19,170 bases of DNA from Chthoniobacteraceae bacterium (lineage in GTDB: Bacteria; Verrucomicrobiota; Verrucomicrobiia; Chthoniobacterales; Chthoniobacteraceae). Below the pieces are notes generated by a model. The model searched no databases, had not been told where the DNA came from, and worked only from the letters and a program-made list of their open reading frames with translations. The stretch spans positions 1 to 19,170 of the forward strand of contig JANNXQ010000136.1 of the NCBI GenBank assembly GCA_031409655.1, in the 5' to 3' direction. Below, in pieces: positions 38-17,268 of this stretch; position 1 is the stretch's first letter, and each line of letters opens with the position of its first letter. The position numbers were made by a program, and so were the translations under genes.

Positions 38-46
38 TGTGGATAA
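38..46 (-). promoter_or_regulatory. Perfect DnaA box (TTATCCACA on - strand) overlapping the dnaA start codon
   Basis: The + strand reads TGTGGATAA at 38-46, the reverse complement of the consensus TTATCCACA. The GTG start is at 39-41. Confidence 0.7.
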
Positions 47-1433: not shown

Positions 1434-1458
1434 CGCGCGCCGCCGTGCAACCGTTACC
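1429..1458. terminator. Hairpin spanning the convergent dnaA/mlaD stop codons, possible weak bidirectional terminator
   Basis: GGTAACG (1429-1435) pairs with CGTTACC (1452-1458), with an inner GCGC/GTGC stem. There is no U-tract. Confidence 0.3.
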
Positions 1459-2452
1459 TCGCGGGAGCCGCCTTGGGCTTCAGGGGGATCGACTTCTTCG
1501 TCCGGAGGATTTCTTCCTCGCTCGGGAGGGCGTTCGGTTTCGTGCCGAAGATCAGCCGATGCGGATGCTCGCCGAGCGTGCGCATGGCGGCCTTCGCGTA
1601 GGTCGTGGCGACCTTGAGATTTTCCATCACCGCCCCGAGTTCCGCCATCCGGGCGTCGATGCTCTTGTCGGTGTGCGTGAGGAAACGGTCGGCGCTGCCG
1701 AGCGTGTCTTTGAGCTGCTCGAGCGCGATCTTCATTTTCTCAAGGTCCGTTTTGATCGGCCCTTCGCTTTCGGCGATGAGTTTGTCGATGCGCTTCAGCG
1801 CGGTGTCCGCGGATGAGGCCGTCGTGTTCAGCGTTTCCGCGAGTTTGGAGATCCGCGGCAGGGCTTCGCTCATTCCATCTTTCAGGGTGTCCACGGCTTC
1901 GCCCGTCTTCGCGAGCAGCGGGTCGAATTGCTTGAGCGTTTTCTCCACGGCCTTCAAGAGTGGGTCGAGCGAGTCCACCATCACACCCACCTTCTCCGCG
2001 ACGCCGTCGAGTCCGCTGCTCCCGGTCCCCTGGAGCACGGCGCCGGCGATCAGTTTCGGAGCGGTGGCGGAGCCGGCGGAAAAGGCGACGAACTTCTCGC
2101 TCAACAACGTGTCGCTCGAGAGCGTGATCTTCGCGTCCTCCGGCACCGGCGGGACGTCATCCGCCATCTCCACCGTGACCCGCACGGCATTGCGCCGCAG
2201 CTCCTCCGGCGCAGTGGCGCGCTCCTCCGCCGTCAGCAGCCGCACGCCGACCACTGATCCCGCCGGCGCTCCGGCATAGCGGACTTGCGAGTGAATGCGG
2301 ACGCCGGTGACATCAGGAAAATCGACCTCGAAGCGGCGGCTCCCCTTCCCCTTCCCCCAACCAGAGAGCGCAAAGACGAGCGTCCCGACCAGAACCGCGC
2401 TGCAAGCGATCACGGCGAGGGCTACGAGGTAGTCGGAGAAGTTTTTCTTCAT
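1454..2452 (-). CDS. mlaD: MlaD/MCE-domain protein with long C-terminal helical (coiled-coil) region
   Basis: N-terminal TM helix, MCE motifs FPDVTGVRIHSQVRYAGAPAGSV and DTLLSEKFVAF, and a C-terminal HPHRLIFG. Last gene of the STAS-mlaE-mlaF cluster. Confidence 0.9.
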   Translation of the reverse strand: MKKNFSDYLVALAVIACSAVLVGTLVFALSGWGKGKGSRRFEVDFPDVTGVRIHSQVRYAGAPAGSVVGVRLLTAEERATAPEELRRNAVRVTVEMADDVPPVPEDAKITLSSDTLLSEKFVAFSAGSATAPKLIAGAVLQGTGSSGLDGVAEKVGVMVDSLDPLLKAVEKTLKQFDPLLAKTGEAVDTLKDGMSEALPRISKLAETLNTTASSADTALKRIDKLIAESEGPIKTDLEKMKIALEQLKDTLGSADRFLTHTDKSIDARMAELGAVMENLKVATTYAKAAMRTLGEHPHRLIFGTKPNALPSEEEILRTKKSIPLKPKAAPAR

Positions 2453-2537
2453 CAGGAAAGTGGCCGGTCGGCGGAGACTCGACGGGCGCTGGTAATGCTT
2501 TCTTCCCGCATCCGACAGCCAGTATCCAGCCCCGTCT

Positions 2538-3386
2538 TCATTCGCCGGAGAAGGCCGTCCGCTTATGCCGGGGCTGGCCGATCAAATGGGTGTGATAATC
2601 GATCTCGGAAAGTTGCAGCGGCACCGGGCCATCCGGCTCGCCATTGATGAACTGTTTCACCTCGGGATTCGCATGCCCGCGCATCTCGTCCGGGGTTCCT
2701 TCGGCGATCACCTTACCCTGATTCCGTCCGGTCCCGAGCATGATCATCCGCGTGCCGATGCGGAAGGCGCTGGTCATGTCATGCGTCACGACCAGCGCCG
2801 TGACGCCGAGCTTGCGCGTCATGTCCTGCGTCAAAATATCGACCACGCTCGTCATGATCGGGTCGAGTCCCGCCGTCGGCTCATCGCTGAAGAGGAGCTG
2901 CGGATCAAGCGCCAGAGCCCGTGCGAGACCCACCCGCTTTTTCATCCCGCCACTGATCTCCGCCGGCTTGAGATTTTCGAAACCCGTGAGCCCGACCATG
3001 CCGAGCTTCAGCTTCACCATGAGATCGACGATATTCGGCGCGAGATCGCCGCGGTGCTCGAGGATGGGCAGCGCGACATTTTCACCGACGGTCAGCGACT
3101 GCAGCAGCGCGCCACTTTGAAAGAGCACGCCGAAGCGCTGCCGGACCTTCGAGAGCGCCCGCTCGTCCATCGTGGTGATCTCTTCTCCGAAGAGCTTGAT
3201 CGAACCGCTCGTCGGTTTCATGGCGCCGATGAGGTGCCGCAGGAGCGTCGATTTTCCGCAGCCCGAGCCACCCATGACGATCATGGTATCGCCCTTCATG
3301 ACTTTGAAAGTGATGCCATTGAGGACGCGCCGTCCGTGGAATTCGCGGGCGAGATCGGTGACTTCGATGACCGGCGTTTCGCTCAT
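2538..3386 (-). CDS. mlaF: MlaF/Mkl-type ABC transporter ATP-binding protein (282 aa, true start MSETPVIEV)
   Basis: GGSGCGKS Walker A, LFQSGAL, ISGGMKKRVGLARA signature, FSDEPTAGLDP and VTHD. The ATG at 3386 overlaps the mlaE stop (ATGA). The ORF-track extension to 3677 lies inside mlaE. Confidence 0.93.
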   Translation of the reverse strand: MSETPVIEVTDLAREFHGRRVLNGITFKVMKGDTMIVMGGSGCGKSTLLRHLIGAMKPTSGSIKLFGEEITTMDERALSKVRQRFGVLFQSGALLQSLTVGENVALPILEHRGDLAPNIVDLMVKLKLGMVGLTGFENLKPAEISGGMKKRVGLARALALDPQLLFSDEPTAGLDPIMTSVVDILTQDMTRKLGVTALVVTHDMTSAFRIGTRMIMLGTGRNQGKVIAEGTPDEMRGHANPEVKQFINGEPDGPVPLQLSEIDYHTHLIGQPRHKRTAFSGE

Positions 3387-4123
3387 ACGGCAAAGAAAAA
3401 GATCCCGGTCAGAATCGCATTCGCCACGAGCACGATGAGCAGCGACCAGACGACCGAACCCGTCGTCGCTTGCCCGACGCCTTCCGCACCGCCCTCCACC
3501 GCGAGCCCGCGAAAACAGGCGATGGTCACGATGAGCCAGGCAAAGACCCCGCTCTTGATGAGTCCCGTCGCCAGATCCCAGACATCCGCGCTTTCCAAGG
3601 AACGCACGATGTAACTCGCCGTTCCGAAATCGAGGGCGAACCGGCAGATCGTCCAGCCACCGACCATCCCGATCCAATCCCCAAAAACGGTCAGCACCGG
3701 GAGCATCAGCAGCATCGCCAGGACGCGCGGGACGATGAGGAAGCGGATCGGATTGATGGCCATGACCTCCAGCGCTTCGATCTCCTCGGAGACCTTCATC
3801 GTGCCAAGTTCCGCCGTCACCGCCGAGCCACTGCGCCCGATCACGATCACCGCGATGAGCAGCGGCCCGAGTTCGCGGAGCAGCGAGACCGTCACCAGAT
3901 TCGGCACGAAGGCTTCCGCACCCATCTTGCGCAGTTCATTCGCCGACTGCATCGCCAGCGTCACGCCGATGGAAAAGGAGGTGAGCATCGCCATCGGCAA
4001 GGCGCGGACGCCGATGAGGACCATCTGATGGAACACTTGCGAGACCTTCCACATCTGCCCACGCCACGGCGCGACGAAGATCCAAAACAAAATCCGTCCG
4101 CAGAGCGCGAGGTAACCTTTCAC
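3383..4123 (-). CDS. mlaE: MlaE family ABC transporter permease
   Basis: RELGPLL, GRSGSAVTAELGTMKVSEEIEALEVMAINPIRFLIVPR and GAEGVGQATT motifs. The GTG start overlaps the STAS stop (GTGA). Confidence 0.95.
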   Translation of the reverse strand: MKGYLALCGRILFWIFVAPWRGQMWKVSQVFHQMVLIGVRALPMAMLTSFSIGVTLAMQSANELRKMGAEAFVPNLVTVSLLRELGPLLIAVIVIGRSGSAVTAELGTMKVSEEIEALEVMAINPIRFLIVPRVLAMLLMLPVLTVFGDWIGMVGGWTICRFALDFGTASYIVRSLESADVWDLATGLIKSGVFAWLIVTIACFRGLAVEGGAEGVGQATTGSVVWSLLIVLVANAILTGIFFFAV

Positions 4124-4467
4124 GCCACGGGCTTGCTGAGCGCCGCGCGCGCCTCCGCCAGGGTGGCGCGAATCGTAAAAATTTCATCAAGCCGCACCAT
4201 GTCGAAGATCGTCCGCACGCTCTCGCTCAACCCGCCGAGGGCGAGCCGTCCGCCGAATGCGGCCGACTTTTGCACATACTCCACGAGGGTCGCGAGACCG
4301 GAGGAATCGATGTACTTCACCTCGGTGAAATCGATGAGCAGAGCAGCGCGCTTCGCGTCCGCATGCACCGCGAGGACGCTGCGCAATTCGGGCGAACGCG
4401 CCATATCCACTTCCCCTGCGATCTGCAAAATGTGCAGACCACCATCGATGAGTTCGCGCACTTGCAT
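4120..4467 (-). CDS. STAS-domain protein (SpoIIAA/RsbV-like anti-anti-sigma; MlaB-like by position)
   Basis: 115 aa. GEVD...SPELR, IDFTEVKYIDSSGLATLV and VRTIFDMVRLD are typical STAS motifs. Confidence 0.9.
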   Translation of the reverse strand: MQVRELIDGGLHILQIAGEVDMARSPELRSVLAVHADAKRAALLIDFTEVKYIDSSGLATLVEYVQKSAAFGGRLALGGLSESVRTIFDMVRLDEIFTIRATLAEARAALSKPVA

Positions 4468-4579: not shown

Positions 4580-4912
4580 TCAGTGTCCGAGCATCCACGG
4601 TCGGCGGTTGCGCTTCGTCGAGGCGCGCAGGGCGGGCTTCTCGGGATTGGCGTTCTTCGGGCGTCGGTGGGCGCAGATGCGCCCGGAACAGCACGCTGTC
4701 TTCAGCCCCACGCGAGGCTCGTGGCGACTGCGCTCATTCCGCACCGCCGCCATGCGATTCAGCGGCTGCATCACCGCTAGGTTCGGCGCAGAAATGACGC
4801 GCGCCGCCAGTCGATCGCAGATCTCACAGGGTGCTGGAGCGTCACGTTGGTCGATGGCGCGGAAGTCGGCAAACGTCCCGCACGTTGCGCATTCAAATTC
4901 GTAAACAGGCAT
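4580..4912 (-). CDS. fmdB: FmdB family zinc-ribbon regulatory protein
   Basis: MPVYEFECATCG...PCEIC...RVISAP zinc ribbon and an RPWMLGH C-terminus. Lies directly downstream of the formamidase. Confidence 0.9.
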   Translation of the reverse strand: MPVYEFECATCGTFADFRAIDQRDAPAPCEICDRLAARVISAPNLAVMQPLNRMAAVRNERSRHEPRVGLKTACCSGRICAHRRPKNANPEKPALRASTKRNRRPWMLGH

Positions 4913-4929
4913 GGATCGCGAGGCCGGGA

Positions 4930-6153
4930 CTACGTGACTCTCGCGAGATCGACGCCGGGCGTCACCCCGGGCACGGGCCCATTGGCATTCGGCTTGATAT
5001 CGAACTTAAAGATCTCCGTGGGCAGCCAGAGCGTGGCACAGGCATTCGGGATATCCACGATCCCGCTGATCCGACCCTCAACCGGAGCGGTCCCAAGAAT
5101 CGCGTAGGCCTGCTCGCCGGTGTACCCAAACTTCTTCATGTACTCAATCGCGTTCAAACAGGCGCGCCGGTATGCGACATGCGGATCGAGATAATATTGC
5201 TTCCCCGCTTCGTCCACGGAGATGCCTTCAAAGATCAGGTGCTGCTTGTAAGTCGGCTCCAGCGCACTGGGTTGGAAAATCGGATTGATGACCCCGTATT
5301 TCGCCATGCCGCCTTTGATGATGCTGACCCGGAGGTCGATGAAGCCTGCCATCTCGATCGCTCCGCAGAAGGTGATTTCACCGTCACCCTGCGAGAAGTG
5401 AATATCGCCCATGGAAAGACCACCGCCGTCCACATAGACAGGGAAATAGATTTTAGATCCACGAGTCAGATTCTTGATGTCACAATTACCACCGTGTTCG
5501 CGAGGCGGCACCGTCCGCGCTGCCTCCTTGGCCGCTTCTGTGCTTGCAGAGGGCGACATCCGGCCCATATGGGCGGTTTCGGCGAAAGGGAGCGCACAGA
5601 GCGGCGGCACGCGTTCCGGCGCGGTGTTGAAAAGTTCGGTCTCCCGCGTATTCCAGGTATCGAGCAACGCTCTGGACGGAAGGCAGCCGATAAGGCCCGG
5701 ATGCAGGATGCCGGCAAACTCGACGTTCGGGATGTGCCGCGAAGAAGTGTAGATACCGTGAAAGTCCCAGCAGGCCTTCCGGGCTTCCGGGTAATGATCG
5801 ACGAGAAACCCGCCGCCGTTTTCCCGCGCAAAGATTCCCGTAAAGCCCCACTCGGAATCCGGCAGCGCACCGATATCGAGCAAGTCCACCACCAGGAGAT
5901 CACCCGGTTCCGCTCCGTGAACGCCGATCGGGCCGCTGAGGTAGTGAACCTTCGTGAGATTCACATCGCGCACGTCCGTCGCGGAGTCATCGTTGCGAAT
6001 CTGCCCCCCGGTCCAGTCAATACACTCGACTCGGAATTCATCACCCGGCTTTACCCATGCGACCATCGGGATATCCGGGTGCCAGCGGTTGTGGATGACA
6101 TCCTGACTTTCAGGCGTCGCATTGAGGTCAATCTTGATCAGTGGTTTTGACAT
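4930..6153 (-). CDS. fmdA: Formamidase (FmdA/AmdA acetamidase-formamidase family)
   Basis: 407 aa. IHNRWHPDIP, DWTGGQI, HYLSGP, HPGLIGC, ARTVPPREHGGNCDIKNL, GDIHFSQGDGEITFCGAIEMAG and IVDIPNACAT. Confidence 0.96.
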   Translation of the reverse strand: MSKPLIKIDLNATPESQDVIHNRWHPDIPMVAWVKPGDEFRVECIDWTGGQIRNDDSATDVRDVNLTKVHYLSGPIGVHGAEPGDLLVVDLLDIGALPDSEWGFTGIFARENGGGFLVDHYPEARKACWDFHGIYTSSRHIPNVEFAGILHPGLIGCLPSRALLDTWNTRETELFNTAPERVPPLCALPFAETAHMGRMSPSASTEAAKEAARTVPPREHGGNCDIKNLTRGSKIYFPVYVDGGGLSMGDIHFSQGDGEITFCGAIEMAGFIDLRVSIIKGGMAKYGVINPIFQPSALEPTYKQHLIFEGISVDEAGKQYYLDPHVAYRRACLNAIEYMKKFGYTGEQAYAILGTAPVEGRISGIVDIPNACATLWLPTEIFKFDIKPNANGPVPGVTPGVDLARVT

Positions 6154-6883
6154 AGGTTCGGTGGGTTGTGGTTGCTGGTTGGTGGAAATAAATTAGACGG
6201 CGAGCATTGCCTTGACTTTGGTGGCATCGATCTCCGCGCGCGTGCACTTCGTGAATGAAACGTCCCCGATCCATGACGAGCACCCGGTCGCAGACATCCA
6301 TCATGAAGCTCACGACCTGCTCGGTGACGACGATGGTCAGGTCGCGCAGGTTGCGAATTTCCCGCAGGGTGCGGGCGAGGTCTTTGATAATCGAGGGCTG
6401 GATGCCTTCGGTCGGTTCGTCGAGCACCAGAACCTTGGGCTCGGTGAGCAGGGCGCGCCCGATGGCGAGTTGTTGCTGCTGGCCGCCGGAGAGATTGCCG
6501 CCCTTGCGCTTCCGCATCTCGAAGAGCACCGGAAAGAGCGCGTAGATTTCATCGAGTGCGGATTTCTCGACGTTGCCGCGGGCTCCGGAGTGGAGATTCT
6601 CCAGCACGGTGAGGCTGCTGAAAATCATCCGCCCCTGCGGCACGTAGGCCAGTCCGCTGCGCACCCGGCGATGGGAAGGCAGGCCAGCCACTTCCTTGCC
6701 ATCCACTTTTACCGAGCCGGAGTTCGACTGGAGCAGTCCGATCAATCCCCGGAGCAGCGTGCTTTTCCCCATCCCGTTACGCCCCATGATGGCGAGCACC
6801 TCGCCCTTCGCGGCGCTGAAGCTCGCGGCGTGGATGACCTCGCTCTGTTCATAACCAACGGTGAGTTCTTTGACTTCCAACAT
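6128..6883 (-). CDS. urtE: Urea/amide ABC transporter ATP-binding subunit UrtE. Apparent 1-nt frameshift near 6236-6252; natural stop probably at 6193-6195.
   Basis: GRNGMGKS, YVPQGR, GGNLSGGQQQQLAIGRAL and LDEPTEGIQPSII. A plausible C-terminus, RAEIDATKVKAMLAV*, lies in another frame. Confidence 0.9.
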   Translation of the reverse strand: MLEVKELTVGYEQSEVIHAASFSAAKGEVLAIMGRNGMGKSTLLRGLIGLLQSNSGSVKVDGKEVAGLPSHRRVRSGLAYVPQGRMIFSSLTVLENLHSGARGNVEKSALDEIYALFPVLFEMRKRKGGNLSGGQQQQLAIGRALLTEPKVLVLDEPTEGIQPSIIKDLARTLREIRNLRDLTIVVTEQVVSFMMDVCDRVLVMDRGRFIHEVHARGDRCHQSQGNARRLIYFHQPATTTHRTYVKTTDQD

Positions 6884-6895
6884 AGGGTGGGTGGT

Positions 6896-7642
6896 TTAGT
6901 GGCCGAGATACACGTCCTGCACTTTTTGATTTTGCTGAATCTCTGTCATCCGTCCTTCCGCGAGAATCTTTCCGAGATGCAGGACGGTGACCTTGTGGGC
7001 GATGCGCTGCACAAACTCCATGTCGTGCTCGATGATCAGGATGGAGCGATTCTCGGTGATGCGCCCCAGGAGCTGTGCGGTTAACTCCCTCTCGGCGGGA
7101 CTCATACCCGCGACCGGTTCGTCGAGCATGAGCAACTCCGGGTCTTGCATGAGTAACATCCCAATCTCCAGCCACTGCTTCTGCCCGTGACTAAGGAAGG
7201 CTCCTTCGACATCCAGGTATTCCTGAAGAAAGACCGTCTGCGCGATCTGCTCGATGCGCTCGATCACTTCCGGCGAGCGTTTGAAGGCAAGGCAGCCGAA
7301 GACGCTGTGGCCCTTGGGATACGAAATCTCGAGGTTCTCGAAGACCGTCAGGTTCTCATAGATGGAAGGCGTCTGGAACTTCCGGCCGATGCCCGCATGC
7401 ACGATCTTGTGTTCGGCCATGCCGAGGATTTCGCGCTGCTTGAATTTGATGCTGCCGCCGGTGGCCCGCGTGCGTCCGCAGATGAGATCGAGCACCGTGG
7501 TTTTGCCCGCGCCGTTCGGGCCGATAATCACCCGTAACTCTTTGCTGTCGACGTAGAGGTTGAGGCTGTCCACGGCCTTGAAGCCGTCGAAGGACACGGT
7601 GAGATCCTCGATCGAGAGGAGGAAGTCGGTTTCGTTACTCAT
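6896..7642 (-). CDS. urtD: Urea/amide ABC transporter ATP-binding subunit UrtD (248 aa, start MSNETDFLL)
   Basis: VSFDGFKA, IIGPNGAGKTT, GIGRKFQTP, LSHGQKQWLEIGM, DEPVAGM, IEHDM and VYLG. The ATG at 7642 overlaps the urtC stop (ATGA). Confidence 0.94.
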   Translation of the reverse strand: MSNETDFLLSIEDLTVSFDGFKAVDSLNLYVDSKELRVIIGPNGAGKTTVLDLICGRTRATGGSIKFKQREILGMAEHKIVHAGIGRKFQTPSIYENLTVFENLEISYPKGHSVFGCLAFKRSPEVIERIEQIAQTVFLQEYLDVEGAFLSHGQKQWLEIGMLLMQDPELLMLDEPVAGMSPAERELTAQLLGRITENRSILIIEHDMEFVQRIAHKVTVLHLGKILAEGRMTEIQQNQKVQDVYLGH

Positions 7643-8796
7643 GATTCTCCTCCCGTCTTGGCGAGTTGCACCGGGCCGACGCGTGGGAGGGTGCGCCGGG
7701 CAGCCGCTCCGCGCGCCTTCATGCCGGGGATGCGTTTTCGGATCGTCTCCCAAACGCCGCCCAGGCCATTCGGGAAAAACATGACCACGGCGATGAACAG
7801 CCCGCCCATCGCGAAGAGCCAGAGCTGCGGGAAGTTCTCCGAAAAGAGACTCTTCCCCGTATTCACCAAGAGCGTGCCATAGACCGCGCCGAGCAAGGAC
7901 AGCTTCCCCCCGACCGCGGCGAAGATGACCATCTCGATCGAGGGCACGATCCCAACGAGTGATGGCGAGATGAAGCCGACTTGGAGCACAAAGAGCGCGC
8001 CACCGATCCCGCTGATACCCGCCGCCAGACAGAAGGCGAAGGTCTTGATATTCGCCACATCGTACCCGGAGAAGCGGACGCGATCCTCGCGATCCCGCAT
8101 GGCCAGGAGCACCCGGCCCATGCGGGAGGAAAGCACGAACCGCGACACGAGAATGCAGGCAATGAGCAGCGCCGCGCAGACAAAGTAGAGAACGTATTGC
8201 GCCGCCTGCGTGCGGATGTCCCAACCCCACAAGGTGCGCAGATCGGTGATGCCATTGCGGCCCCCGGTGAGGCCCTGATTGCCGTCGATCCCCAAGGAGA
8301 GAATCAGTGCGAGGGCTTGCGTGATCACCGCGAAATAGACGCCGCCAACGCGCCGCTTGAACATCGCTGCACCAACGAAGAACGCGATGATCGTAGGCAC
8401 CAGCACCGCCGCACAGAGCGCGAAGGGCAGGCTCTTGAATGGCACCCAAAGCGCCGGAAGGGCGGTCAATTGATTCCAATCCATGAAGTCCGGAATACCG
8501 GGCGTGCTCTGGATCGCGGTGTTCTGCGGGCTGGAGGCTTCGAGCTTCAGAAACATCGCCATGCAGTAGCCACCCAGTCCAAAAAAGATGCCCTGCCCGA
8601 GACTGAGCACCCCGGCATTTCCCCAGAGCATCACCAAACCGACCGCGACAAAGGCATAGGTCAGATACTTTCCGACCAAGTTGAGCCGAAAGATGTCGAG
8701 CGTGACGGGCAGCACTATAAATAGGATGGCGGCGAGGATGGCGATGCCGATCGCCCCTTGGGTGCCTCCGATGACGTTGCGGTAGAATTTCTTCAT
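7639..8796 (-). CDS. urtC: Urea/amide ABC transporter permease UrtC (385 aa, start MKKFYRNV)
   Basis: GKYLTYAFVAVGL..WG..GVLSLGQGIFFGLGGY, PDFMDWN, GVYFAVITQA, AMRDREDRVRFSGY and SIEMVIFAAVGG. The start lies 5 nt after the urtB stop. Confidence 0.93.
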   Translation of the reverse strand: MKKFYRNVIGGTQGAIGIAILAAILFIVLPVTLDIFRLNLVGKYLTYAFVAVGLVMLWGNAGVLSLGQGIFFGLGGYCMAMFLKLEASSPQNTAIQSTPGIPDFMDWNQLTALPALWVPFKSLPFALCAAVLVPTIIAFFVGAAMFKRRVGGVYFAVITQALALILSLGIDGNQGLTGGRNGITDLRTLWGWDIRTQAAQYVLYFVCAALLIACILVSRFVLSSRMGRVLLAMRDREDRVRFSGYDVANIKTFAFCLAAGISGIGGALFVLQVGFISPSLVGIVPSIEMVIFAAVGGKLSLLGAVYGTLLVNTGKSLFSENFPQLWLFAMGGLFIAVVMFFPNGLGGVWETIRKRIPGMKARGAAARRTLPRVGPVQLAKTGGES

Positions 8797-8801
8797 AAGG
8801 A

Positions 8802-9743
8802 CTAACTGCGGACCTTGCTCGGGAAGAGACCCTGTGGCCGGAGCATGAGGATCACGACGATGGCGAGGAGAGTCATGACCTTGCCCATCGTGCCCTCTAG
8901 GAAAAACTCGGAGATCGACTGCGCCTGCGCGATGGAGAAGGCGGAGATGATGGTGCCGAACAGGCTGGCCGCGCCGCCAAAGACGACGACGAGAAAGGTA
9001 TCCACAATGTAGCGCTGGCCGCTGTCCGGTCCCGTGGAGCCGATGGTGGTGAAGGCCGCTCCCGCAACTCCGGCGATGCCGCAGCCAAGGGCGAAAGTGA
9101 AGCGGTCCACGAGGCCGGTATTGATGCCGACGGCGCCACTCATCGCGCGGTTTTGGACCGTGGCCCGCATGTGCAGTCCGGTGCGCGAGCGGAACATGAA
9201 GGCCCACACCCCGAGGGTCAGCACGAGCGCGAGGACCATGACGAAAACGCCATTGATCGGGATATCGATGGTGTCCGTGGGCTTAAAGGAACCCATGAGC
9301 CATTCCGGCAGCGTGGGTGTGACTTCCCGGGCTCCGAAGGAGGAACGGAAGGCCTGCTGCATGATGAGACTGAGGCCCCAAGTCGCGAGCAGCGTGTCGA
9401 GCGGTCGCTTATAGAGGAAGCGGATGATGCTCCATTCCACCAAGGTTCCGGCAAGTGCGGCGACGATGAAGGCGATGACGATCGCGAAGATGAAGTAGTA
9501 GGGAGCGAAACTTGGGAAGTGGTTCGTCGTGATCTCCGAGCAGAGATAGACGATGTAAGCGCCGAGGGCCATGAACTCCCCGTGGGCGAGATTGACCACG
9601 CCCATCTGGCCGAAGATGATCGCGAGGCCCAGCGCCATGAGCAGCAGCACGCTAAAGAGGCTAAAGCCGGCAAAGCCCTGCATGATGAAGATCGAGCGCA
9701 TCTCGTCCATCGTGTAGGCGAGGGAGACATAGGGAATAGACAT
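8802..9743 (-). CDS. urtB: Urea/amide ABC transporter permease UrtB (short type)
   Basis: LMALGLAIIFGQMGVVNLAHGEFM, LYKRPLDTLLATWGLSL, YIVDTFLVVVFGG and RPQGLF. Confidence 0.94.
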   Translation of the reverse strand: MSIPYVSLAYTMDEMRSIFIMQGFAGFSLFSVLLLMALGLAIIFGQMGVVNLAHGEFMALGAYIVYLCSEITTNHFPSFAPYYFIFAIVIAFIVAALAGTLVEWSIIRFLYKRPLDTLLATWGLSLIMQQAFRSSFGAREVTPTLPEWLMGSFKPTDTIDIPINGVFVMVLALVLTLGVWAFMFRSRTGLHMRATVQNRAMSGAVGINTGLVDRFTFALGCGIAGVAGAAFTTIGSTGPDSGQRYIVDTFLVVVFGGAASLFGTIISAFSIAQAQSISEFFLEGTMGKVMTLLAIVVILMLRPQGLFPSKVRS

Positions 9744-9780
9744 GGGTTGAGCGTGGGTTGGATTAATTCATTCAGGGGCA

Positions 9781-9811
9781 AGCGCGACGGGGATCGGACC
9801 CGTCCAGCGCT
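9781..9811 (-). other. Intercistronic stem-loop downstream of urtA, likely an mRNA stabiliser or partial terminator
   Basis: AGCGC-GACGGG-N7-CCCGTC-CA-GCGCT, 19 nt after the urtA stop. Such hairpins are common after binding-protein genes. Confidence 0.55.
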
Positions 9812-9830
9812 CGGGTGGTGCGGCGGTCGC

Positions 9831-11066
9831 TTATTGGTAGCCCTTCGGGAATGGATCGGGTTCGAGCAGCTCGGACTCGTAGAGCACTTTTGCTTGGCCA
9901 TTGGTCTCCCAGACACCGATGCGCAGCTTGCTCCAGAGGTGATGATTCGCGTGGACCTTCACGTAACCTTCGGGTGCTTCTTTGAGTTCAATGCCGGGAG
10001 AAGCAGCCGCGACTTTATCCACATCGAAGCTCCCAGCCTTCTCGACGGCAGCCTTCCAAAGCCACGGTCCGAGGTACCCCGCCTGGGTCACATCCCCGAT
10101 CACGCTCTTTTCGCCATACTTGGCTTTGAAGGCTTTGACGAAGGCGGCGTTGTTCGGGTTATCGAGGCTCTGGAAGTATTTCATCGCCGCGTAGAAGCCA
10201 GCGAGGTTTTCCCCGCCGATGCCGAGCACTTCGTCTTCCGTCACGGAGATCGTGAGCAAGGTTTGTTTGTCGGCAGTGATGCCGGCGGCTTTGAGCTGCT
10301 TGTAGAAGGAGACGTTACTCCCGCCTACGATGATGGCGTAGATGACGTCGGGCTTCTTGAGTTTGATCTTATTGATCAAGGAGCCGAACTGAGTGTGGCC
10401 GAGGGCGTAGTATTCCTCGCCCACGACGGTGCCCTTGAGCACGTTCTCGATGTGTTTGCGGGCGATTTTATTCGAGGTGCGCGGCCAGATGTAGTCAGAG
10501 CCGATGAGGTAGAAGGTCTTGGCTTTCTTCTCCTTCGCGATCCAATCCAGCCCGGCAAGGATTTGCTGGGTGGCTTCCTGGCCGGTGTAGATCACGTTCT
10601 TCGACTGCTCGAGGCCTTCGTAAAAGGTCGGGTAGTAGAGCATTCCGTTTTCTTTTTCGAAGACCGGCAGCACCGCTTTGCGCGACGCCGAGGTCCAGCA
10701 GCCGAAGACAGCAGCCGCCTTGTCATTCACGAGCAGTTTCTTCGCTTTCTCGGCAAAGGTGGGCCAGTCACTGGCGCCGTCTTCCTTGATGACTTTGATT
10801 TGCCGCCCGAGCACGCCACCCATGGCGTTGATTTGATCGATCGCGAGTTGCTCGGCCTGAATCGATCCGGTCTCGCTGATCGCCATGGTGCCGGTCGCGG
10901 AGTGGAGCTGACCGACGGTGACAGTGGTGTCGGTCACGGCGAGGCCAGTGGTATTCACGTCGGCAGTCGATGCTCCGGCGTAGAGAGAAGGCGCCGTTAG
11001 GGAAGCAGCAAGCAGGAAGCCGAGGAAGGCTCGGCGTCGATAGGTGTGTGCGGTGGTTTTTTTCAT
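9831..11066 (-). CDS. urtA: Urea/short-chain amide ABC transporter substrate-binding protein UrtA (FmdD-like), possible Tat signal
   Basis: GQLHSATGTMAISE, EDGASDWPTFAEKA, FGCWTSASRKAVLP, YPTFYEGLE, GSDYIWPRTSN and NHHLWSK. N-terminus reads YRRRAFLGFLLAA. Confidence 0.96.
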   Translation of the reverse strand: MKKTTAHTYRRRAFLGFLLAASLTAPSLYAGASTADVNTTGLAVTDTTVTVGQLHSATGTMAISETGSIQAEQLAIDQINAMGGVLGRQIKVIKEDGASDWPTFAEKAKKLLVNDKAAAVFGCWTSASRKAVLPVFEKENGMLYYPTFYEGLEQSKNVIYTGQEATQQILAGLDWIAKEKKAKTFYLIGSDYIWPRTSNKIARKHIENVLKGTVVGEEYYALGHTQFGSLINKIKLKKPDVIYAIIVGGSNVSFYKQLKAAGITADKQTLLTISVTEDEVLGIGGENLAGFYAAMKYFQSLDNPNNAAFVKAFKAKYGEKSVIGDVTQAGYLGPWLWKAAVEKAGSFDVDKVAAASPGIELKEAPEGYVKVHANHHLWSKLRIGVWETNGQAKVLYESELLEPDPFPKGYQ

Positions 11067-11104
11067 GTGGTTGTGTGGTTGTTTGGTTGCGGTGGTTGGT
11101 GGAG

Positions 11105-12274
11105 TTAGTGAGTCATGGCGTGGAGGAGGGAGACGTCAGGTGGCGCCTCGGCACGGGGCAGCCGCCCCGCGAGAAGGGTCGGCGGTGTGGCCCGGACAGC
11201 GCCCGCGCAAGCTTCTCGGTAGACGTCCTCGCGGAAGATTTTGGGGATGACATCCCGGCGGAGAACCCGTGATGCGGGGGCCAATTCGCGGACGTGCTCG
11301 AAGACCCTGCGCCCTTTCGCCGCGTCCGGGACATTTGCGCCGCAGCGATGGTAGGTGATGAAGTCGCTGATCGGGCGGGCGCCGCGGCCAGTATCGAAGG
11401 GGCCACTCAGGGAACTGGCGAGGAGCGCTGCGGGAACATCAAGGTAACGCGGCTGCGCCAGCATCTCGATAAGTTCGCCCCGGCACTGCGGACTCTCGCA
11501 GAAGAGACTCGCTTCGGCGAGGGCGCTGATCAGCGCTCGGTGCTCGTGCGTCCGCTCTTCCTCGAATTTTTCCAAGACGAGTAAGACTTTCTCCGGCAAG
11601 CCTGGATCGAGTTCGGCCGAAGTGGCGGCGATCCATCCCATACCCTCCTGGGTCACGATGGAGTTCCACGGCTCGGCAACGCAGTAGCCATCGAGGTGGC
11701 GCTCGGTGAGCCCGCGATGGATCACGGGCGAAGGCACGATCTGGATGCGGACGTCACGATCGGGATCGATGCCTCCACTGCGCAGCCAGGCGCGGAGTTG
11801 CTGATTCTGAGTGGAAAGTTCGAGCACGGCGCCGAAGCGGTAAGTGCGACGGCCACGGTCGCGCTTGATGACGGTTTGCAGCGAAGCGGCATCGCGCACG
11901 CCTGCGTCCCACAGTTCCTTGGAAAGCGTGATGGCACTCCCATTCAAACTCAGCACGAAAGCCGTGAGACAGGGCCGCGGTACGACGCCGAGTCCGCAAC
12001 GAATGCTGAAACCCATGCTGGCGGGCGCATGGACTGCGTCCAGTTCTTCGTGGAGCAGCTTCTCACGGATCGTCGCCCAGCCGACTTCCTTGTGCAGTTG
12101 CACCGAGAGGCCGTGGCGCGCGAAGAGCCCGAGTTCCTGCGCCGCGATGAGCACGGCGCAGTCGATCATCGGCACGAAGCCAATGTGCAGCCTCTCATGG
12201 CGGCCAGGCAATTGGCGGCTCTCGCGAGCAGAGCGTGGTGGTGTGGCTTTTGGCACGAGCGCCGCCATTAGCAC
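11105..12274 (-). CDS. NrtA/CmpA-family binding-fold protein without signal peptide (NasS-like cytoplasmic sensor). Start uncertain: 12274, 12268, 12256 or 12211.
   Basis: IGFVPMIDCAVLIAAQELGLF, EVGWATIRE, LNGSAITLS, LRAWLRSGGIDPDRDV, DGYCVAEPWNS, PEKVL and LAQPRYL. There is no hydrophobic N-terminal segment. Confidence 0.88.
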   Translation of the reverse strand: MLMAALVPKATPPRSARESRQLPGRHERLHIGFVPMIDCAVLIAAQELGLFARHGLSVQLHKEVGWATIREKLLHEELDAVHAPASMGFSIRCGLGVVPRPCLTAFVLSLNGSAITLSKELWDAGVRDAASLQTVIKRDRGRRTYRFGAVLELSTQNQQLRAWLRSGGIDPDRDVRIQIVPSPVIHRGLTERHLDGYCVAEPWNSIVTQEGMGWIAATSAELDPGLPEKVLLVLEKFEEERTHEHRALISALAEASLFCESPQCRGELIEMLAQPRYLDVPAALLASSLSGPFDTGRGARPISDFITYHRCGANVPDAAKGRRVFEHVRELAPASRVLRRDVIPKIFREDVYREACAGAVRATPPTLLAGRLPRAEAPPDVSLLHAMTH

Positions 12275-12285
12275 CGGCAGTGCCA
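12270..12285 (-). promoter_or_regulatory. Putative sigma54 (-24/-12) promoter for the NasS-like/urt/fmd operon
   Basis: The - strand reads (C)TGGCACTGCCGGTGCT, i.e. GG-N10-GC, close to the consensus TGGCACG-N4-TTGCW. It points into a nitrogen-scavenging operon. Confidence 0.6.
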
Positions 12286-12336
12286 GGGCATTTCGCCGAA
12301 CCGACGGAATCGAAGGATGAAAAGCTCTTGCCGCAT

Positions 12337-12355
12337 CTGTGAATCGCTTTCACAG
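12337..12355. promoter_or_regulatory. Palindromic operator CTGTGAA-N5-TTCACAG containing the LysR T-N11-A motif
   Basis: Perfect 7-bp inverted repeat with T12340-N11-A12352, in the divergent spacer upstream of the LysR gene. Confidence 0.65.
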
Positions 12356-12420
12356 TCCGGCTTCGCACTGCCGGGGGTTGCCGTTCGGCAACTCCCCCCA
12401 CTCTGGTCGCGCGTCACGCA

Positions 12421-13359
12421 ATGACCACCATCGACAGTCAGCATCTTCGCGTCGTCTGTGTCCTTGCGCGGCACCTCAATATGAGCCGTGCGGCGCAGGA
12501 GCTGAAGATGACCCCATCGGGCATTAGTCATTGTCTAAAGGCCATCGAGAGCGATCTCGGCTGCCGGCTTTTCGAGCGCAGTTCGCGCCACGTCGCGCTC
12601 ACCGCAGTGGGTGTGGAGTTCCTGAAGGAAGCCGAGGCGATCATCCAGCGGATGACCGATGCGCGGTCGAATCTGCGAACGTTCTCCGACGCGCGCGCCG
12701 GGCAGCTCCGGATCGCGGCAGGCACCACGGCCTCCCAGTATCTACTGCCACCGGCGCTGCGCGAGTTTCGGGAAAGTTTTCCCGGGTGCAGCATTCAGAT
12801 CGCGCTCTGCAACGCGGAGCAGGCAGTGGCGGCGATCGAGAACGGCGACGCTGACCTTGCCGTCGGGGTGCAACCTCCACCGAGCACGGGCGTGACCTTC
12901 ATCCCTCTCGCGGAAGATGAGCTGCGCTACCTCACAAACCCGATGCACCCGTGGGCACTGAATCGCCGCACCGGACGCGATGATGTGAGCGGGCAAAAGT
13001 TCATCCTGCCGGCGCGCGGCACGGCGACGCATGCGCTGATCGAGAGCTACTTCCGCCGAGCGGGCGTGCGGCTCCAGTCTTTCATCGAGATTGGGAATGA
13101 AGAGGTCATCAAACAGTTCGTGCGGCTCGATCTCGGCGTCGCACTGCTCCCGCGCTGGATCGCGGAGACGGAGATCCGCCAGGGCGCGCTCGTCTGCCTG
13201 CCGCTGGGCCGCCGCCGCCTGCGCCGAAGCTGGGGCGTGCTGCATGCGCGCAATCACCGACTCTCATTTGCGGAGTCGATGCTGATCGATCTTTGTCGCA
13301 CCGTAGCGAAGGAGTTGATGGGCGAGCCGACGCGTGAGTTGACGGATTCGCGCAAATGA
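12421..13359 (+). CDS. LysR family transcriptional regulator (CysL/CbbR/CmpR-like substrate domain)
   Basis: 312 aa. HTH NMSRAAQELKMTPSGISHCLKAIESDLGCRLFER, then GQLRIAAG..LLPPALREFRESFP and EVIKQFVRLDLGVALLP. Confidence 0.95.
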   Translation: MTTIDSQHLRVVCVLARHLNMSRAAQELKMTPSGISHCLKAIESDLGCRLFERSSRHVALTAVGVEFLKEAEAIIQRMTDARSNLRTFSDARAGQLRIAAGTTASQYLLPPALREFRESFPGCSIQIALCNAEQAVAAIENGDADLAVGVQPPPSTGVTFIPLAEDELRYLTNPMHPWALNRRTGRDDVSGQKFILPARGTATHALIESYFRRAGVRLQSFIEIGNEEVIKQFVRLDLGVALLPRWIAETEIRQGALVCLPLGRRRLRRSWGVLHARNHRLSFAESMLIDLCRTVAKELMGEPTRELTDSRK

Positions 13360-13692: not shown

Positions 13693-15465
13693 CTAAGCTG
13701 CCACCACCCCGCCCACCGGCTCGACCCACTTGCCGTGCTCGCGGATCAAGTCCTGGAGCCGCTCCACGGCTTCCGCTTCGGGGATGTTGAATTTCACGGC
13801 CTGCTTGCCGACGTAGAGGTTCACCTTGCCGGGCGCGCCGCCGACGTAACCAAAATCCGCGTCGGCCATTTCGCCGGGGCCATTCACGATGCAGCCCATG
13901 ATGGCGATCTTCACGCCTTTCAAGTGCGCGGTCGCCGCTTTGATCTTCGCGGTCGTCGTCTGGAGATTGAAGAGCGTGCGGCCACAGCTCGGGCAGGCCA
14001 CGTAGTCGGTCTTGAAGATGCGGGTGCCGGCGGCTTGCAGGACGTTATACGAGAGCCGCATCGCCTGACCGGGTGCGTCTTCGCCTTGCACGAGGATGGC
14101 GTCGCCGATGCCGTCGCAGAGAAGCGCGCCGAGGTTCGTGGCGGCGGCGAGGAGCGTGGGGAGGAAATCGGCCTGCGGGTCACTGGAGGGGGAAAAGGTA
14201 TCCTTGAGGAGGATCGGATGCCGCGCATCAAGGCTGGCGGCGAGGAGTCGGAACGCGGCGATGACTGGGAGATCCAGGTCGTCGCGGACGGTGACCAATT
14301 GGGGTTCCGCGCTCGCGTTGACTTTCGCGATGCTCGCGGCGTCGCGTGGATCCACTTCGAGCACCTCCGAGTCCTCGTAGATCAGCTCCGGCTGGTAGTC
14401 GCCCATCTGCTTCACTTTGTGCGCGATCTTTTCAAAATTCGCTTTCCGGATCGCGACGCGCACGAGTTGTTCTCCGCCAACTTTGAAACCGCTCCGCTCA
14501 ATAGTCTCAGTCGCGCGCCGCTCATAGACGAAAGGGTCGTAGCTGAGCTTGGAGTTTGGAATTTGGAGTTTGGAGTTTGGAGTTTCCGCGACGCGTGCCA
14601 CCAGAGCGCGCGCCACCGGAATCTCATGCACGCTGTCCTCCGTGAGCGAGACGCGGATGGTATCGCCGAGCCCATCACTGAGCAGGCTCCCAATGCCGAT
14701 CGCGCTCTTAATGCGGCCATCTTCCCCGTCGCCCGCTTCGGTGACGCCGAGATGCAGCGGGTAGTTCCAGTCCGGGCCTTCCTCCGCGAGCCGCGCCGCG
14801 AGCAGGCGATAGGCTTCGATCATTACCTTCGGGTTGCTCGATTTCATCGAGAAGATGAAGTCGTGGTAGCCGAGGGTGCGGGCGATGTGGGCGAATTCCA
14901 GAGCACTCTCGACCATCCCGAGCGGGGTGTCGCCGAAACGGTTCATGATGCGGTCGCTGAGCGAGCCGTGGTTCGTGCCGATGCGCATGGCGCGACCGTG
15001 CTCTTTCAGGAAAAGCACGAGCGGCGTGAACCGTTCGCGGATGCGCTCCAGCTCGGCGGCGTATTGCGCGTCGGTGTATTCGACGATCTTGAACTTCTTC
15101 GAGTCCGCGTAGTTGCCGGGATTAATCCGCACCTTCTCGACCCACTTCGCCGACTCCATCGCGGCGTCGGGTTTGAAGTGGATATCCGCGACGATCGGCA
15201 CGTCGCAACCGCGCTCCCGGAGGCCAGAGACGATGTGCTGTAAGTTCGCCGCATCTTTCACCGTGGGTGCCGTGATGCGCACGATCTCGCAACCGACCAC
15301 CGCCAGATCGAGCGTCTGCTGAATGGACGCCGCCGTGTCCATCGTGTCGCAGGTGATCATCGACTGCACGCGGATCGGATGTTCGCCGCCGACACCGACT
15401 TGGCCGACCATGACGACGCGTGACTTGCGCCGCTCGCAGTTAAAGGGCGACGCGCAATAAATCAT
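13693..15465 (-). CDS. ispG: (E)-4-hydroxy-3-methylbut-2-enyl-diphosphate synthase IspG, long form with insert domain (590 aa, start MIYCASP)
   Basis: PIRVQSM, PIVADIHF, KVRINPGN, RIGTNHGSLSDRI, YPLHLGVTEAG, GDTIRVSLTED, CPSCGR and IMGCIVNGPGEMADAD. The ORF-track extension to 15615 overlaps rseP. Confidence 0.97.
   Translation of the reverse strand: MIYCASPFNCERRKSRVVMVGQVGVGGEHPIRVQSMITCDTMDTAASIQQTLDLAVVGCEIVRITAPTVKDAANLQHIVSGLRERGCDVPIVADIHFKPDAAMESAKWVEKVRINPGNYADSKKFKIVEYTDAQYAAELERIRERFTPLVLFLKEHGRAMRIGTNHGSLSDRIMNRFGDTPLGMVESALEFAHIARTLGYHDFIFSMKSSNPKVMIEAYRLLAARLAEEGPDWNYPLHLGVTEAGDGEDGRIKSAIGIGSLLSDGLGDTIRVSLTEDSVHEIPVARALVARVAETPNSKLQIPNSKLSYDPFVYERRATETIERSGFKVGGEQLVRVAIRKANFEKIAHKVKQMGDYQPELIYEDSEVLEVDPRDAASIAKVNASAEPQLVTVRDDLDLPVIAAFRLLAASLDARHPILLKDTFSPSSDPQADFLPTLLAAATNLGALLCDGIGDAILVQGEDAPGQAMRLSYNVLQAAGTRIFKTDYVACPSCGRTLFNLQTTTAKIKAATAHLKGVKIAIMGCIVNGPGEMADADFGYVGGAPGKVNLYVGKQAVKFNIPEAEAVERLQDLIREHGKWVEPVGGVVAA
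14549..14585. repeat. Heptamer tandem repeat (TTGGAGT)x5 inside ispG
   Basis: TTGGAGT TTGGAAT TTGGAGT TTGGAGT TTGGAGT TT, encoding part of ETPNSKLQIPNSK. Confidence 0.9.
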
Positions 15466-15485
15466 CGGCCGTGCGACGTTGGCGC

Positions 15486-17129
15486 TCACCCCTTCTGCGC
15501 TTCGGCCACCGCGGCGCGGTCGAATTTCATCTGCGGGCCTTTTTCGCCGCCGATCCAATCCTGCACGTCGAAGAACATGATGAAGACCATGAAGCCAATG
15601 ATCACCAGGGCGCAAGCGGTCTGGACGTATTCGAGGATGCGCACATTGACGGGGCGTTTGCGGATGCCTTCGACGATCGCCAGGGTGATGTGGCCGCCGT
15701 CGAGGACCGGGATCGGGAGCAGGTTGAGCAGGGCGAGATTCACGTTCAGCACGACGCTGAACCAGAGGGCGAGCCGCCAGCCTTCCTTGCTTTCAAACAT
15801 CATGTAATAGGCGCGCATCATCATCACCGGACCGCCCATGTGCTGCATGCCGATGCTCGATTTCTGCGAGAAGACGGCACCGAGGGTATCGACGATCATC
15901 ATCACGCTCTTGTGGAGTTGCTCGCCGGGCGCGGGGTGGATGACTTGAAACTGGCCCATCTGGTCCCAGATGATGCTGTCGTCCTGCGCCCATTCGATGC
16001 CGAGGCGCGGGGTTTCCTGACCGACCGGCGGGACCGGTGTGACCTTGATCTTCGCCGGAGCGCCCTCGCGCTCGATGGCGAGTTCGATGGCTTTGCCGGC
16101 ATTCTTTTGCACGTACTCCGAGATGCCGATGGAGACGCGCAGCGGAGTGCCATCGACGCCAACGACGCGGTCCCCCGCTTTGACGCCGGCGACCTCCGCC
16201 GGGCTGTCTTTCGCCACGGCGCCGATGCGGGCACCATTCGGAGTGAAGGGGAGCTTCAGCGTTTGATCACCCCGCTGGACGGTCAGCGTGAGCGGCTGTC
16301 CAGGGCTGCTGGCCGCGGCTTCGATGATGTTAAACTCGCTGTAGATGCGCTTGCCGTTTACCTCGGACACGAGGTCGTTCGGCTGCAAGCCAGCGCGAGA
16401 CGCCGGGCTGTCCGGCAGGATCTTGGCGACCATCGGCGTCTCGGCGGGGCCGACTTGGATCTGTCGCAAGCCGCGCCGCTGCCACCAGTCCGTGGTCGGA
16501 ATCTTCGGAGTGACCTCGAGATCCATCGTCTTCCCAGCGCGCTCAATCTTGATCGGAATGGTCGCGCCCTCACTGCGGACGATGCGCCAGGTGATGCTGT
16601 CCGAGCCCATGCCCCCAAAGCGCGAGACGGGGCTGCCGTCCACGGCCAAAATCTTGTCGCCAATTTGCAGACCGGCTTTCGCGGCGGGCGAGTTGTCGCC
16701 GACCATCCCGATGACCGTGGTGGCCTCCCCTTCCCCCACCGGACGACCGACTTGCCAGACGATGACGGCGAAGAAAGCCGCGAGCAGGAAGCTGAAGAGC
16801 GGGCCGGCAAAGGCGACGATGATCTTATCCATCACCGAGATCGCCGGGAGTTGCTCACGCGAAAGCTCGGTCTTGCCTTCCATCACTTCCATGGGCGCGA
16901 GCTGCGGCAGTTTCACAAAGCCGCCGAAGGGGATCGAGCCCCAGCTATAGACCACACCGTTGATCGTCTTTTTCCAGAGCGGCTTGCCAAACCACAGGCC
17001 GAATTCCTCAACGACCAAGCCCCGCCAGCGGGCCGCGAGGAAGTGTCCGAGTTCGTGGACGATGATCATCAAGTTGAAGACCAGCAGGACTTCGAGGCAG
17101 ATGCCGATGATTTTGAGGATGTGGAGCAT
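15486..17129 (-). CDS. rseP: RIP metalloprotease RseP (site-2 protease, M50) with three PDZ domains
   Basis: HELGH zinc motif, IPFGGFVKL, FAGPLFS and NLALLNLLPIPVLDGGH. Three SPA..AG...D PDZ motifs. Lies upstream of ispG. Confidence 0.95.
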   Translation of the reverse strand: MLHILKIIGICLEVLLVFNLMIIVHELGHFLAARWRGLVVEEFGLWFGKPLWKKTINGVVYSWGSIPFGGFVKLPQLAPMEVMEGKTELSREQLPAISVMDKIIVAFAGPLFSFLLAAFFAVIVWQVGRPVGEGEATTVIGMVGDNSPAAKAGLQIGDKILAVDGSPVSRFGGMGSDSITWRIVRSEGATIPIKIERAGKTMDLEVTPKIPTTDWWQRRGLRQIQVGPAETPMVAKILPDSPASRAGLQPNDLVSEVNGKRIYSEFNIIEAAASSPGQPLTLTVQRGDQTLKLPFTPNGARIGAVAKDSPAEVAGVKAGDRVVGVDGTPLRVSIGISEYVQKNAGKAIELAIEREGAPAKIKVTPVPPVGQETPRLGIEWAQDDSIIWDQMGQFQVIHPAPGEQLHKSVMMIVDTLGAVFSQKSSIGMQHMGGPVMMMRAYYMMFESKEGWRLALWFSVVLNVNLALLNLLPIPVLDGGHITLAIVEGIRKRPVNVRILEYVQTACALVIIGFMVFIMFFDVQDWIGGEKGPQMKFDRAAVAEAQKG

Positions 17130-17268
17130 GAAGGAGGGCTAAAGGATAGAGGATGCGGCGTGAGTCAAGAGCATGATGCCAGCCGAGTCCGAGGCGAAGC
17201 GCGAACGCAACGCCGCACGCCGCTGCACCTGCCGCCCGTCTCAACGAGGCGGTGCGCCGGGCAGGCGG

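Follow-up and report, generated by a model that had tools for sequence, protein, structure and literature searches.

Several published regulatory systems come close to the locus described here. In the NasS-NasT system of Paracoccus denitrificans, a signal-less NrtA-fold sensor heads a nitrogen-assimilation cluster and is co-transcribed with its partner, an ANTAR RNA antiterminator, this pathway control being layered under NtrC control (PMC3795266, PMC5424462). The C-terminal regulatory domains (CRDs) of NrtC and CmpC (PDB 8wm7, 9uai) are fused to an ATP-binding cassette (ABC) ATPase; the loop before their pocket Trp is the partner surface, and the CRD of CmpC locks CmpD through this loop (R315, T317) until nitrate releases it (PMC10945777, PMC13287603). 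LysR-type transcriptional regulators (LTTRs) of the NtcB and NdhR/CbbR types (PDB 8h3v, 5y2v) are known at nitrate operons, NtcB using a 15+7+15 tandem box far upstream and working with the global nitrogen activator NtcA at a sigmaA promoter (bioRxiv 10.1101/2022.10.10.511513). The fmdCABDEF operon of Methylophilus methylotrophus, amide-induced and ammonia-repressed, encodes a formamidase, FmdB and an amide/urea ABC transporter, and the accessible part of its description mentions no pair of LysR and sensor (PMC10781810). We have analysed a stretch of 19,170 nt from a Chthoniobacteraceae bacterium (contig JANNXQ010000136.1; the whole stretch is called the window below) where such a pair, a LysR gene divergent from the gene of a cytoplasmic NrtA-fold sensor, heads a urea/short-amide uptake and formamidase operon.

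LTTRs are one-component regulators acting at sigma70 promoters in the textbook description. AtzR of Pseudomonas sp. ADP is an LTTR modulated by a protein partner, the PII protein GlnK, near a sigmaN promoter, and in AmiC-AmiR a sensor with the fold of a substrate-binding protein (SBP) controls an amidase operon, AmiC belonging to another SBP class and acting on an ANTAR protein. The pair studied here is outside NasS-NasT (no NasT is found with it), outside the CRDs (it is unfused) and outside NtcB (which is not its nearest match and uses another sigma factor); in its way of working it would resemble a NasS-NasT system whose output binds DNA, its genes being divergent and not co-transcribed. 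We consider it likely that the pair is a two-protein transcriptional switch of the Verrucomicrobiae, made of an anion sensor and of a dedicated LysR acting at a sigma54 promoter. The literature searched, which includes the accessible part of an LTTR review (PMC11495319) and leaves most subscription papers outside, holds no description of a LysR-sensor pair.

Linkage and predicted contact of sensor and LysR

The genes of the window lie as the original prediction had placed them: lysR (12421..13359, plus strand) diverges from the sensor gene (11105..12256, minus strand), which is followed after 38 nt by urtABCDE-fmdA-fmdB, and NrtB and NrtC are absent from the window. This window is contig C136 of the source genome G000 (94.9% complete), whose closest relatives carry the labels Chthoniobacteraceae and Chthoniobacterales; nrtBC is present elsewhere in G000, on contig C127, but behind a LysR/sensor pair of its own. 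We surveyed 151 genomes of the order and 301 genomes of the phylum Verrucomicrobiota, taking LysR matches at E <=1e-45 and leaving G000 out. The linkage of the two genes proved to be conserved: 21 of 23 LysR matches in the order and 38 of 41 in the phylum (59/64 in total) stand head to head with a sensor, and so do 59 of the 61 free sensors with a LysR, these sensors having been picked by hand by leaving out NrtA and fused-CRD rows. One genome (G020) also carries a 40% LysR. The LysR is divergent in all 11 close GTDB loci, ten of which continue into urtA and eight of which reach fmdA. For metagenomes, the analysis took the best 80 of 613 loci and dropped two truncated rows (L193 and L213) from the table; here a divergent LysR accompanies 29 of the 32 Gly65 proteins with upstream room (one of them partial), against 0 of 45 non-Gly proteins by hidden Markov model (L175 shows a tblastn fragment). 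Since kin are not independent, the contexts weigh more than these counts. The operons that the pair leads are of the Nrt-ABC, MFS, FNT, cyanate and Urt/FmdA types, which means that the module follows the LysR and not a transporter.

The sensor is an NMT1_2 protein whose best PDB matches are the CRDs of NrtC and CmpC (E 8e-55), NrtA being matched at E 9e-29 only. Its open frame of 414 aa contains no ABC nucleotide-binding domain, and the ESM Atlas returned generic family names only. The absence of a signal peptide, announced by the original prediction, holds by a hydropathy proxy: whichever ATG, GTG or TTG is taken as the start, the N-terminal stretch is short and basic and rich in Pro, and even when the farthest common start is used, no more than 3 of the 70 paired sensors attain a hydropathy of 1.8. 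The GTG at 12256, about 15 nt past the -12 element, recurs in most loci of the urt clade (by eye) and is therefore the likely start; the open reading frame (ORF) runs from 12274, and our residue numbers follow the 389-aa ORF counted from there. An in-frame stretch further upstream, with an RR motif and a hydrophobic run (hydropathy 2.55), has no ATG, GTG or TTG, overlaps the sigma54-type site and is not conserved; it is the promoter read as protein. With neither signal peptide nor cognate permease in the window, the sensor stands apart from exported proteins of the NrtA/CmpA/CynA type.

The LysR protein has HTH_1 and LysR_substrate domains and, with its divergent gene and predicted tandem T-N11-A sites, is an LTTR; its best PDB match is NdhR (E 4e-63), NtcB coming at 2e-41. 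We modelled two LysR chains with one sensor, each with a 67-row alignment. The model scored 0.74 and the best control 0.04; 116 of 157 solved pairs attain the mark used, as do 2 of 215 mismatched ones. Runs share at least 86% of their contacts and the partner's predicted local distance difference test (pLDDT) value is at least 89. In the model, residues 111-119 and 281-298 of LysR, the latter a C-terminal helix, lie on residues 62-71, 146-152 and 178-193 of the sensor. The contact spans both sensor lobes at the mouth of the cleft and takes in the ligand residue W66, so that the loop used by the CRDs is again the predicted partner surface. R114-E115, on the predicted sensor-binding face, occurs in 68/68 paired LysRs and in 0/8 unrelated LTTRs, and G65, W66 and P181 are invariant in 67/67 sensors. 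Interface positions change jointly in the urt clade (sensor 182/184, LysR 286/287/290), a pattern confounded by shared descent. We noticed no complex of an LTTR with a binding protein among 36 PDB matches. Hence the earlier proposal that the sensor is wired to LysR is largely supported by the linkage and by the passing model, binding itself being only predicted; the sensor most likely docks directly onto the neighbouring LysR.

Predicted promoter architecture and joint duplication

Between the two genes of the window, on the minus strand, we find a sigma54-type -24/-12 element, GG-N10-GC (12270..12285), facing the sensor operon, a predicted palindromic LTTR box of consensus RTGAA-N5-TTCAY, T-N11-A (12339..12353), with its centre 62 bp from the GG, and a second, degenerate box (12317..12331) 7 bp after the first, in a 15+7+15 layout. 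The element facing the sensor scores at least 8 in 56 of 68 intergenic regions (30 shuffles: mean 7.8, maximum 13), and the palindrome is present at 9 or more of its 10 positions in 45/68 (shuffles 1.6); L062 and L105 were left out of the promoter counts. The distance from box centre to GG is 57-62 bp in 39 of 51 regions, the second box following 7 bp on, and by eye the element of G070 is visible with a spacing of 48 bp. A matrix of the composite element, built from 44 regions and run on 16 further loci, matches five of them, unlinked nrtABCD in the pair-bearing G046, L082, L126, L146 and L150, and misses the NasR and NasST loci and also two pair loci of family f18. Scanned over G000, it finds only the two loci that had been in its training set (56.6 and 44.6; next 18.4), thus no wider regulon in this genome. 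G000 encodes RpoN and 10 full-length sigma54 activators, so that element, sigma factor and enhancer-binding proteins are all present; scans for sigma70 promoters and terminators stayed at chance level. The boxes are laid out as for NtcB, but the LysR of the window is nearer to NdhR, its promoter is of sigma54 type and not of the sigmaA/NtcA type, it comes with a separate sensor protein, and it is not an NtcB orthologue.

Some features of these regions deserve mention in their own right. In nitrate-clade loci (e.g. L024, L060) the start codon of lysR lies 2 nt from the first box, which implies a leaderless or very short-leader mRNA. The lysR leader of the window contains a minor GC-rich hairpin (12372..12398, plus strand), and similar stems are found in several urt-clade loci (L013, L015, L018). 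Family f19 also shows a reverse-facing sigma54-like match. In Methylacidiphilum SolV, a 'tauA' beside 'cbbR/lysR' rises from 28 to 117 reads per kilobase per million (RPKM) in N2-fixing cells, lysR staying flat and bisC not rising (PMC3404531). These data give weak outside support, orthology to our pair following from gene order only; on the same footing, the names 'cbbR' and transporter subunit given to the genes of the pair appear to be annotation errors. A remark on cbbR and nitrate that has been attributed to Hou 2008 is absent from the main text of PMC2474590.

The second head-to-head pair of G000, on C127, has a sensor 46% and a LysR 42% identical to the window copies, and leads nrtA, a signal-less NrtA-like gene, nrtBCD, a porin, a flavoprotein, nirA, an FeS/DmsC protein and nasA. 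In a quick tree (IQ-TREE), paired sensors split from NasS, fused CRDs and NrtA (SH-aLRT 99), so that the sensor forms a lineage separate from NasS, and the urt sensor group (96) is sister to the cyanate group (98). The urt and cyanate copies fall together as a single group in the sensor tree (0.99) and again in the LysR tree (0.999); L020, whose lysR is frameshifted, was left out of the paired trees and residue counts. By these trees, the window pair is a derived paralogue, sister to the copies at cyanate operons, whose sensor was duplicated together with its LysR. The module as a whole mainly heads nitrate/nitrite assimilation operons.

Two points on C127 can be noticed. The signal-less NrtA-like gene just listed (G000:C127:37874-39166), a second NrtA-like gene within the nitrate operon, has similar genes in L067, L068 and L122, and the alginate-export-family porin, CysJ-like flavoprotein, ferredoxin-type NirA and FeS/DmsC genes (G000:C127:26084-35207), conserved in many loci, form a set that suggests an unusual electron route.

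Competing explanations

Several observations weigh against a switch in which the sensor acts through LysR. The calibration of the complex model fits only roughly (own alignments, two LysR copies), its controls are unrelated proteins, and close cousins also pass the mark. Gly-Trp is found in periplasmic CynA as well (3/3), and one of the metagenome search patterns contained ExGW. The box consensus was picked by eye from the same regions in which it was counted, reverse-strand sigma54 matches (28/68) are also above shuffles, and f18 pairs show weak sigma54 matches and another spacing. Of the 26 well-supported splits among the sensors, 3 are at odds with the LysR tree, where the urt-only group is weak (0.647). 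Five LysR relatives have no adjacent sensor, three of them keeping R-E, and G070 (96% complete) and G127 (85%) carry a LysR without a sensor match. Finally, the LysR may bind an effector of its own.

This last point leads to a first alternative, which we hold to be unlikely: the LysR would sense its own small molecule in the one-component manner of NtcB, and the sensor would be a co-transcribed ligand buffer or feedback sink making no contact with it. The boxes do share the 15+7+15 layout of NtcB (bioRxiv 2022.10.10.511513), and LysR persists without a sensor match in the two genomes just named as well as at L146, L149 and L150. What speaks for contact is that the passing complex model falls on residues invariant in both partners, that the very diverged pair of G413 (28-32% identity) keeps both R-E and G-W, and, with the reservation about descent made above, that the interface changed jointly in the urt clade.

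According to a second alternative, to which we give a small probability, the sensor is a detached NrtC/CmpC regulatory domain acting in trans on the downstream transporter (UrtD/E in the window), with LysR merely co-regulating. The closest solved folds are indeed these CRDs, many nitrate loci have a short NrtC/NrtD lacking a fused CRD, and CRDs are known to clamp ATPases (PMC13287603, PMC10945777). Yet the obligate company of an Nrt/Cmp ABC transporter, typical of a CRD, is not kept by this free-standing sensor. In fourteen of the loci fetched, the cluster lacks an Nrt-type ATPase and carries MFS, FNT or no transporter (L061, L062, L063, L066, L069, L073, L076, L123, L125, L133, L134, L142, L143 and L152; contig ends cut L062 and L076, and a 34% ATPase lies at the far end of L061). 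The sensor persists at three loci (L072, L075, L077) where NrtC has its own fused CRD, and it is separate from the fused CRDs in the tree; a single family would have to regulate unrelated transporter folds. In view of the same contexts, the earlier suggestion that the sensor is wired to the Urt ATPases is not supported. The pair also heads cynABD-cynS at two loci (L119, L141) and stands without recognisable nitrogen genes at two others (L144, L145). As a separate observation, a PP2C-Ser/Thr kinase fusion adjoins the MFS nitrate transporter at L063:5433-7091, with similar cases in L076, L142 and L166, and is also found beside nasTS in several metagenome loci.

The original prediction saw no NasT in the window, and none is found genome-wide: G000 gives 0 ANTAR matches (the control was silent in that search), and searches with two genuine NasT proteins reach nothing but REC domains there, while they do find the NasR control of G030. 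In G030 itself a NIT-ANTAR NasR is encoded divergently from nrtA, and the searches find no LysR of this kind and no free sensor. Matches to ANTAR are obtained by the same search in 6 of the 151 order genomes. Of the 45 non-Gly proteins in the best 80 of 613 metagenome loci, 30 have an ANTAR neighbour. It is therefore very improbable that the sensor is a standard NasS with its NasT absent from the assembly, or else an exported binding protein whose start was miscalled: the assembly is 94.9% complete and the upstream in-frame stretch is hydrophobic, but ANTAR passes the cut-off in only two of the 151 genomes, neither with the pair, is found in 0/5 urt-clade genomes and beside 0/33 Gly65 metagenome proteins among the same best 80, and the hydrophobic stretch, lacking a common start codon, is the promoter in frame.

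Ligand pocket and operon of the window copy

Nitrate is coordinated in the CRD of CmpC by W319, H408, G452 and K481 (PMC13287603). The sensor of the window has W66, Q156, A200 and K229 in its pocket: Trp and Lys are kept, as in NasS, while His, a ligand residue in NasS too, is replaced by Gln, and Gly by Ala. Nitrate-clade sensors have the pocket His in 54/54 and the Gly in 52/54, whereas urt-clade sensors have Gln in 11/11, Ala in 8/11 and Ser113 in 11/11; L020, left out of these counts, keeps His and Gly. Among 120 homologues, Gln occurs in 119, Ala in 111 and Lys in 118, and Gln and Ala are also found in the three sensors encoded ahead of cynA. The Anabaena NrtC CRD with Gln still binds nitrate weakly, at 0.22 mM (PMC10945777). 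Because the pocket Lys is retained, the residues argue for an anion as the probable ligand, be it formate, nitrite/nitrate or cyanate, rather than the amide. Formate, the product of FmdA, is our leading guess, a tentative one; nitrite or nitrate bound at low affinity is a possibility somewhat behind it, cyanate is rather doubtful, the amide itself would be unlikely, and any other ligand more unlikely still. Binding of cyanate by likeness to CynA was considered and rejected, CynA having a Cys at the position of Lys229 and G000 giving no cynS match. The very diverged pair mentioned above (L234, G413:C21:458087-459853) has lost the pocket Lys and, with no nitrogen genes recognised alongside, is possibly a fourth specificity.

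The operon of the window probably serves formamide or short amides, because G000 has urease and urea carboxylase beside its other urt operon and no cynS match. Control of amide rather than nitrate use, as first put forward, can hence be kept for the derived window copy only; the module is mainly concerned with nitrate/nitrite, G000 has a nitrate copy, and the pocket still looks suited to an anion. The other urt operon (G000:C29:29933-54342) is accompanied by urease and urea carboxylase and, as judged by eye, by two porin-like genes, a GlnA-like gene and a creatininase-like gene; a sigma54-type match is present there, with no LysR box and no pair.

All genes of the window operon are on the minus strand. 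UrtA (9831..11066), FmdD-like, is a urea/short-amide binding protein above the TIGR03407 cut-off with a signal-like N-terminus; the permeases UrtB (8802..9743) and UrtC (7639..8796) and the ATPases UrtD (6896..7639) and UrtE (6128..6883) pass their NCBIfam cut-offs. The C-terminus of UrtE overlaps fmdA: its frame shifts near the end (6128-6260), giving 251 aa against 229 aa in 7/7 homologues, with identical letters in contigs of X1 and X2, which are possibly the source of this DNA; with the same reservation about X1 and X2, the operon is free of indels in the DNA contigs compared. Formamidase FmdA (4930..6153) is above the NF045496 cut-off, and the FmdB-type zinc-ribbon protein (4580..4912) is above that of TIGR02605 and below that of RPWMISH NF053663. 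The flanks (39-4467 and 13693-18945) carry dnaA, an Mla-type ABC system with a STAS protein, ispG, rseP and a PEP-CTERM autotransporter-repeat protein; the operon is placed between ispG and the STAS/mlaE genes, likewise in L015. An Rfam search gave no match.

In the switch that we propose, an NrtA-fold sensor of small anions would bind its dedicated LysR across the mouth of the ligand cleft, and a LysR tetramer would sit on the tandem boxes, at about -83 and -61 in most loci and some 4 bp further out in the window. Transcription of the sensor gene and of the nitrogen-scavenging genes that follow it would start from the sigma54 promoter, with nitrogen limitation supplying the activator, presumably an NtrC-type protein. 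As LysR has no AAA+ domain, it would gate this promoter, probably through bending or blocking of the DNA. The sensor would set the state of LysR: when ligand-free it may hold LysR off until the ligand releases it, or, with the opposite polarity, the ligand-bound sensor may be a co-activator. We lean modestly towards inhibition by the ligand-free sensor, by analogy, because NasS-NasT and the CRD of CmpC work in this way (PMC3795266, PMC5424462), and because LysR and boxes persist in G070 and G127, where no sensor match is found, as the loss of a negative element would allow. The window copy would be a duplicate moved with its LysR ahead of an operon for formamide/short-amide uptake and formamidase.

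A broader reading has, in our estimate, slightly less than an even chance: an LTTR with a detached SBP-fold sensor on its effector domain, gating a sigma54 promoter, would be a portable insulated cassette, duplicated and retuned, and a new class of two-protein regulators replacing NasST/NasR. We are about equally reserved on the retuning of its pockets, with His/Gly for nitrate and Gln/Ala for cyanate and amide operons. The residues of the interface, the DNA boxes and the pocket changes make the pair directly testable, and its paralogues could be used as parts of biosensors. If the switch is real, it puts an LTTR under a separate ligand-binding protein and at a sigma54 promoter, which would broaden both textbook paradigms; it would also explain the control of nitrate, cyanate and amide use in an abundant soil and freshwater phylum, methanotrophs included, in which NasT and NasR are rare.

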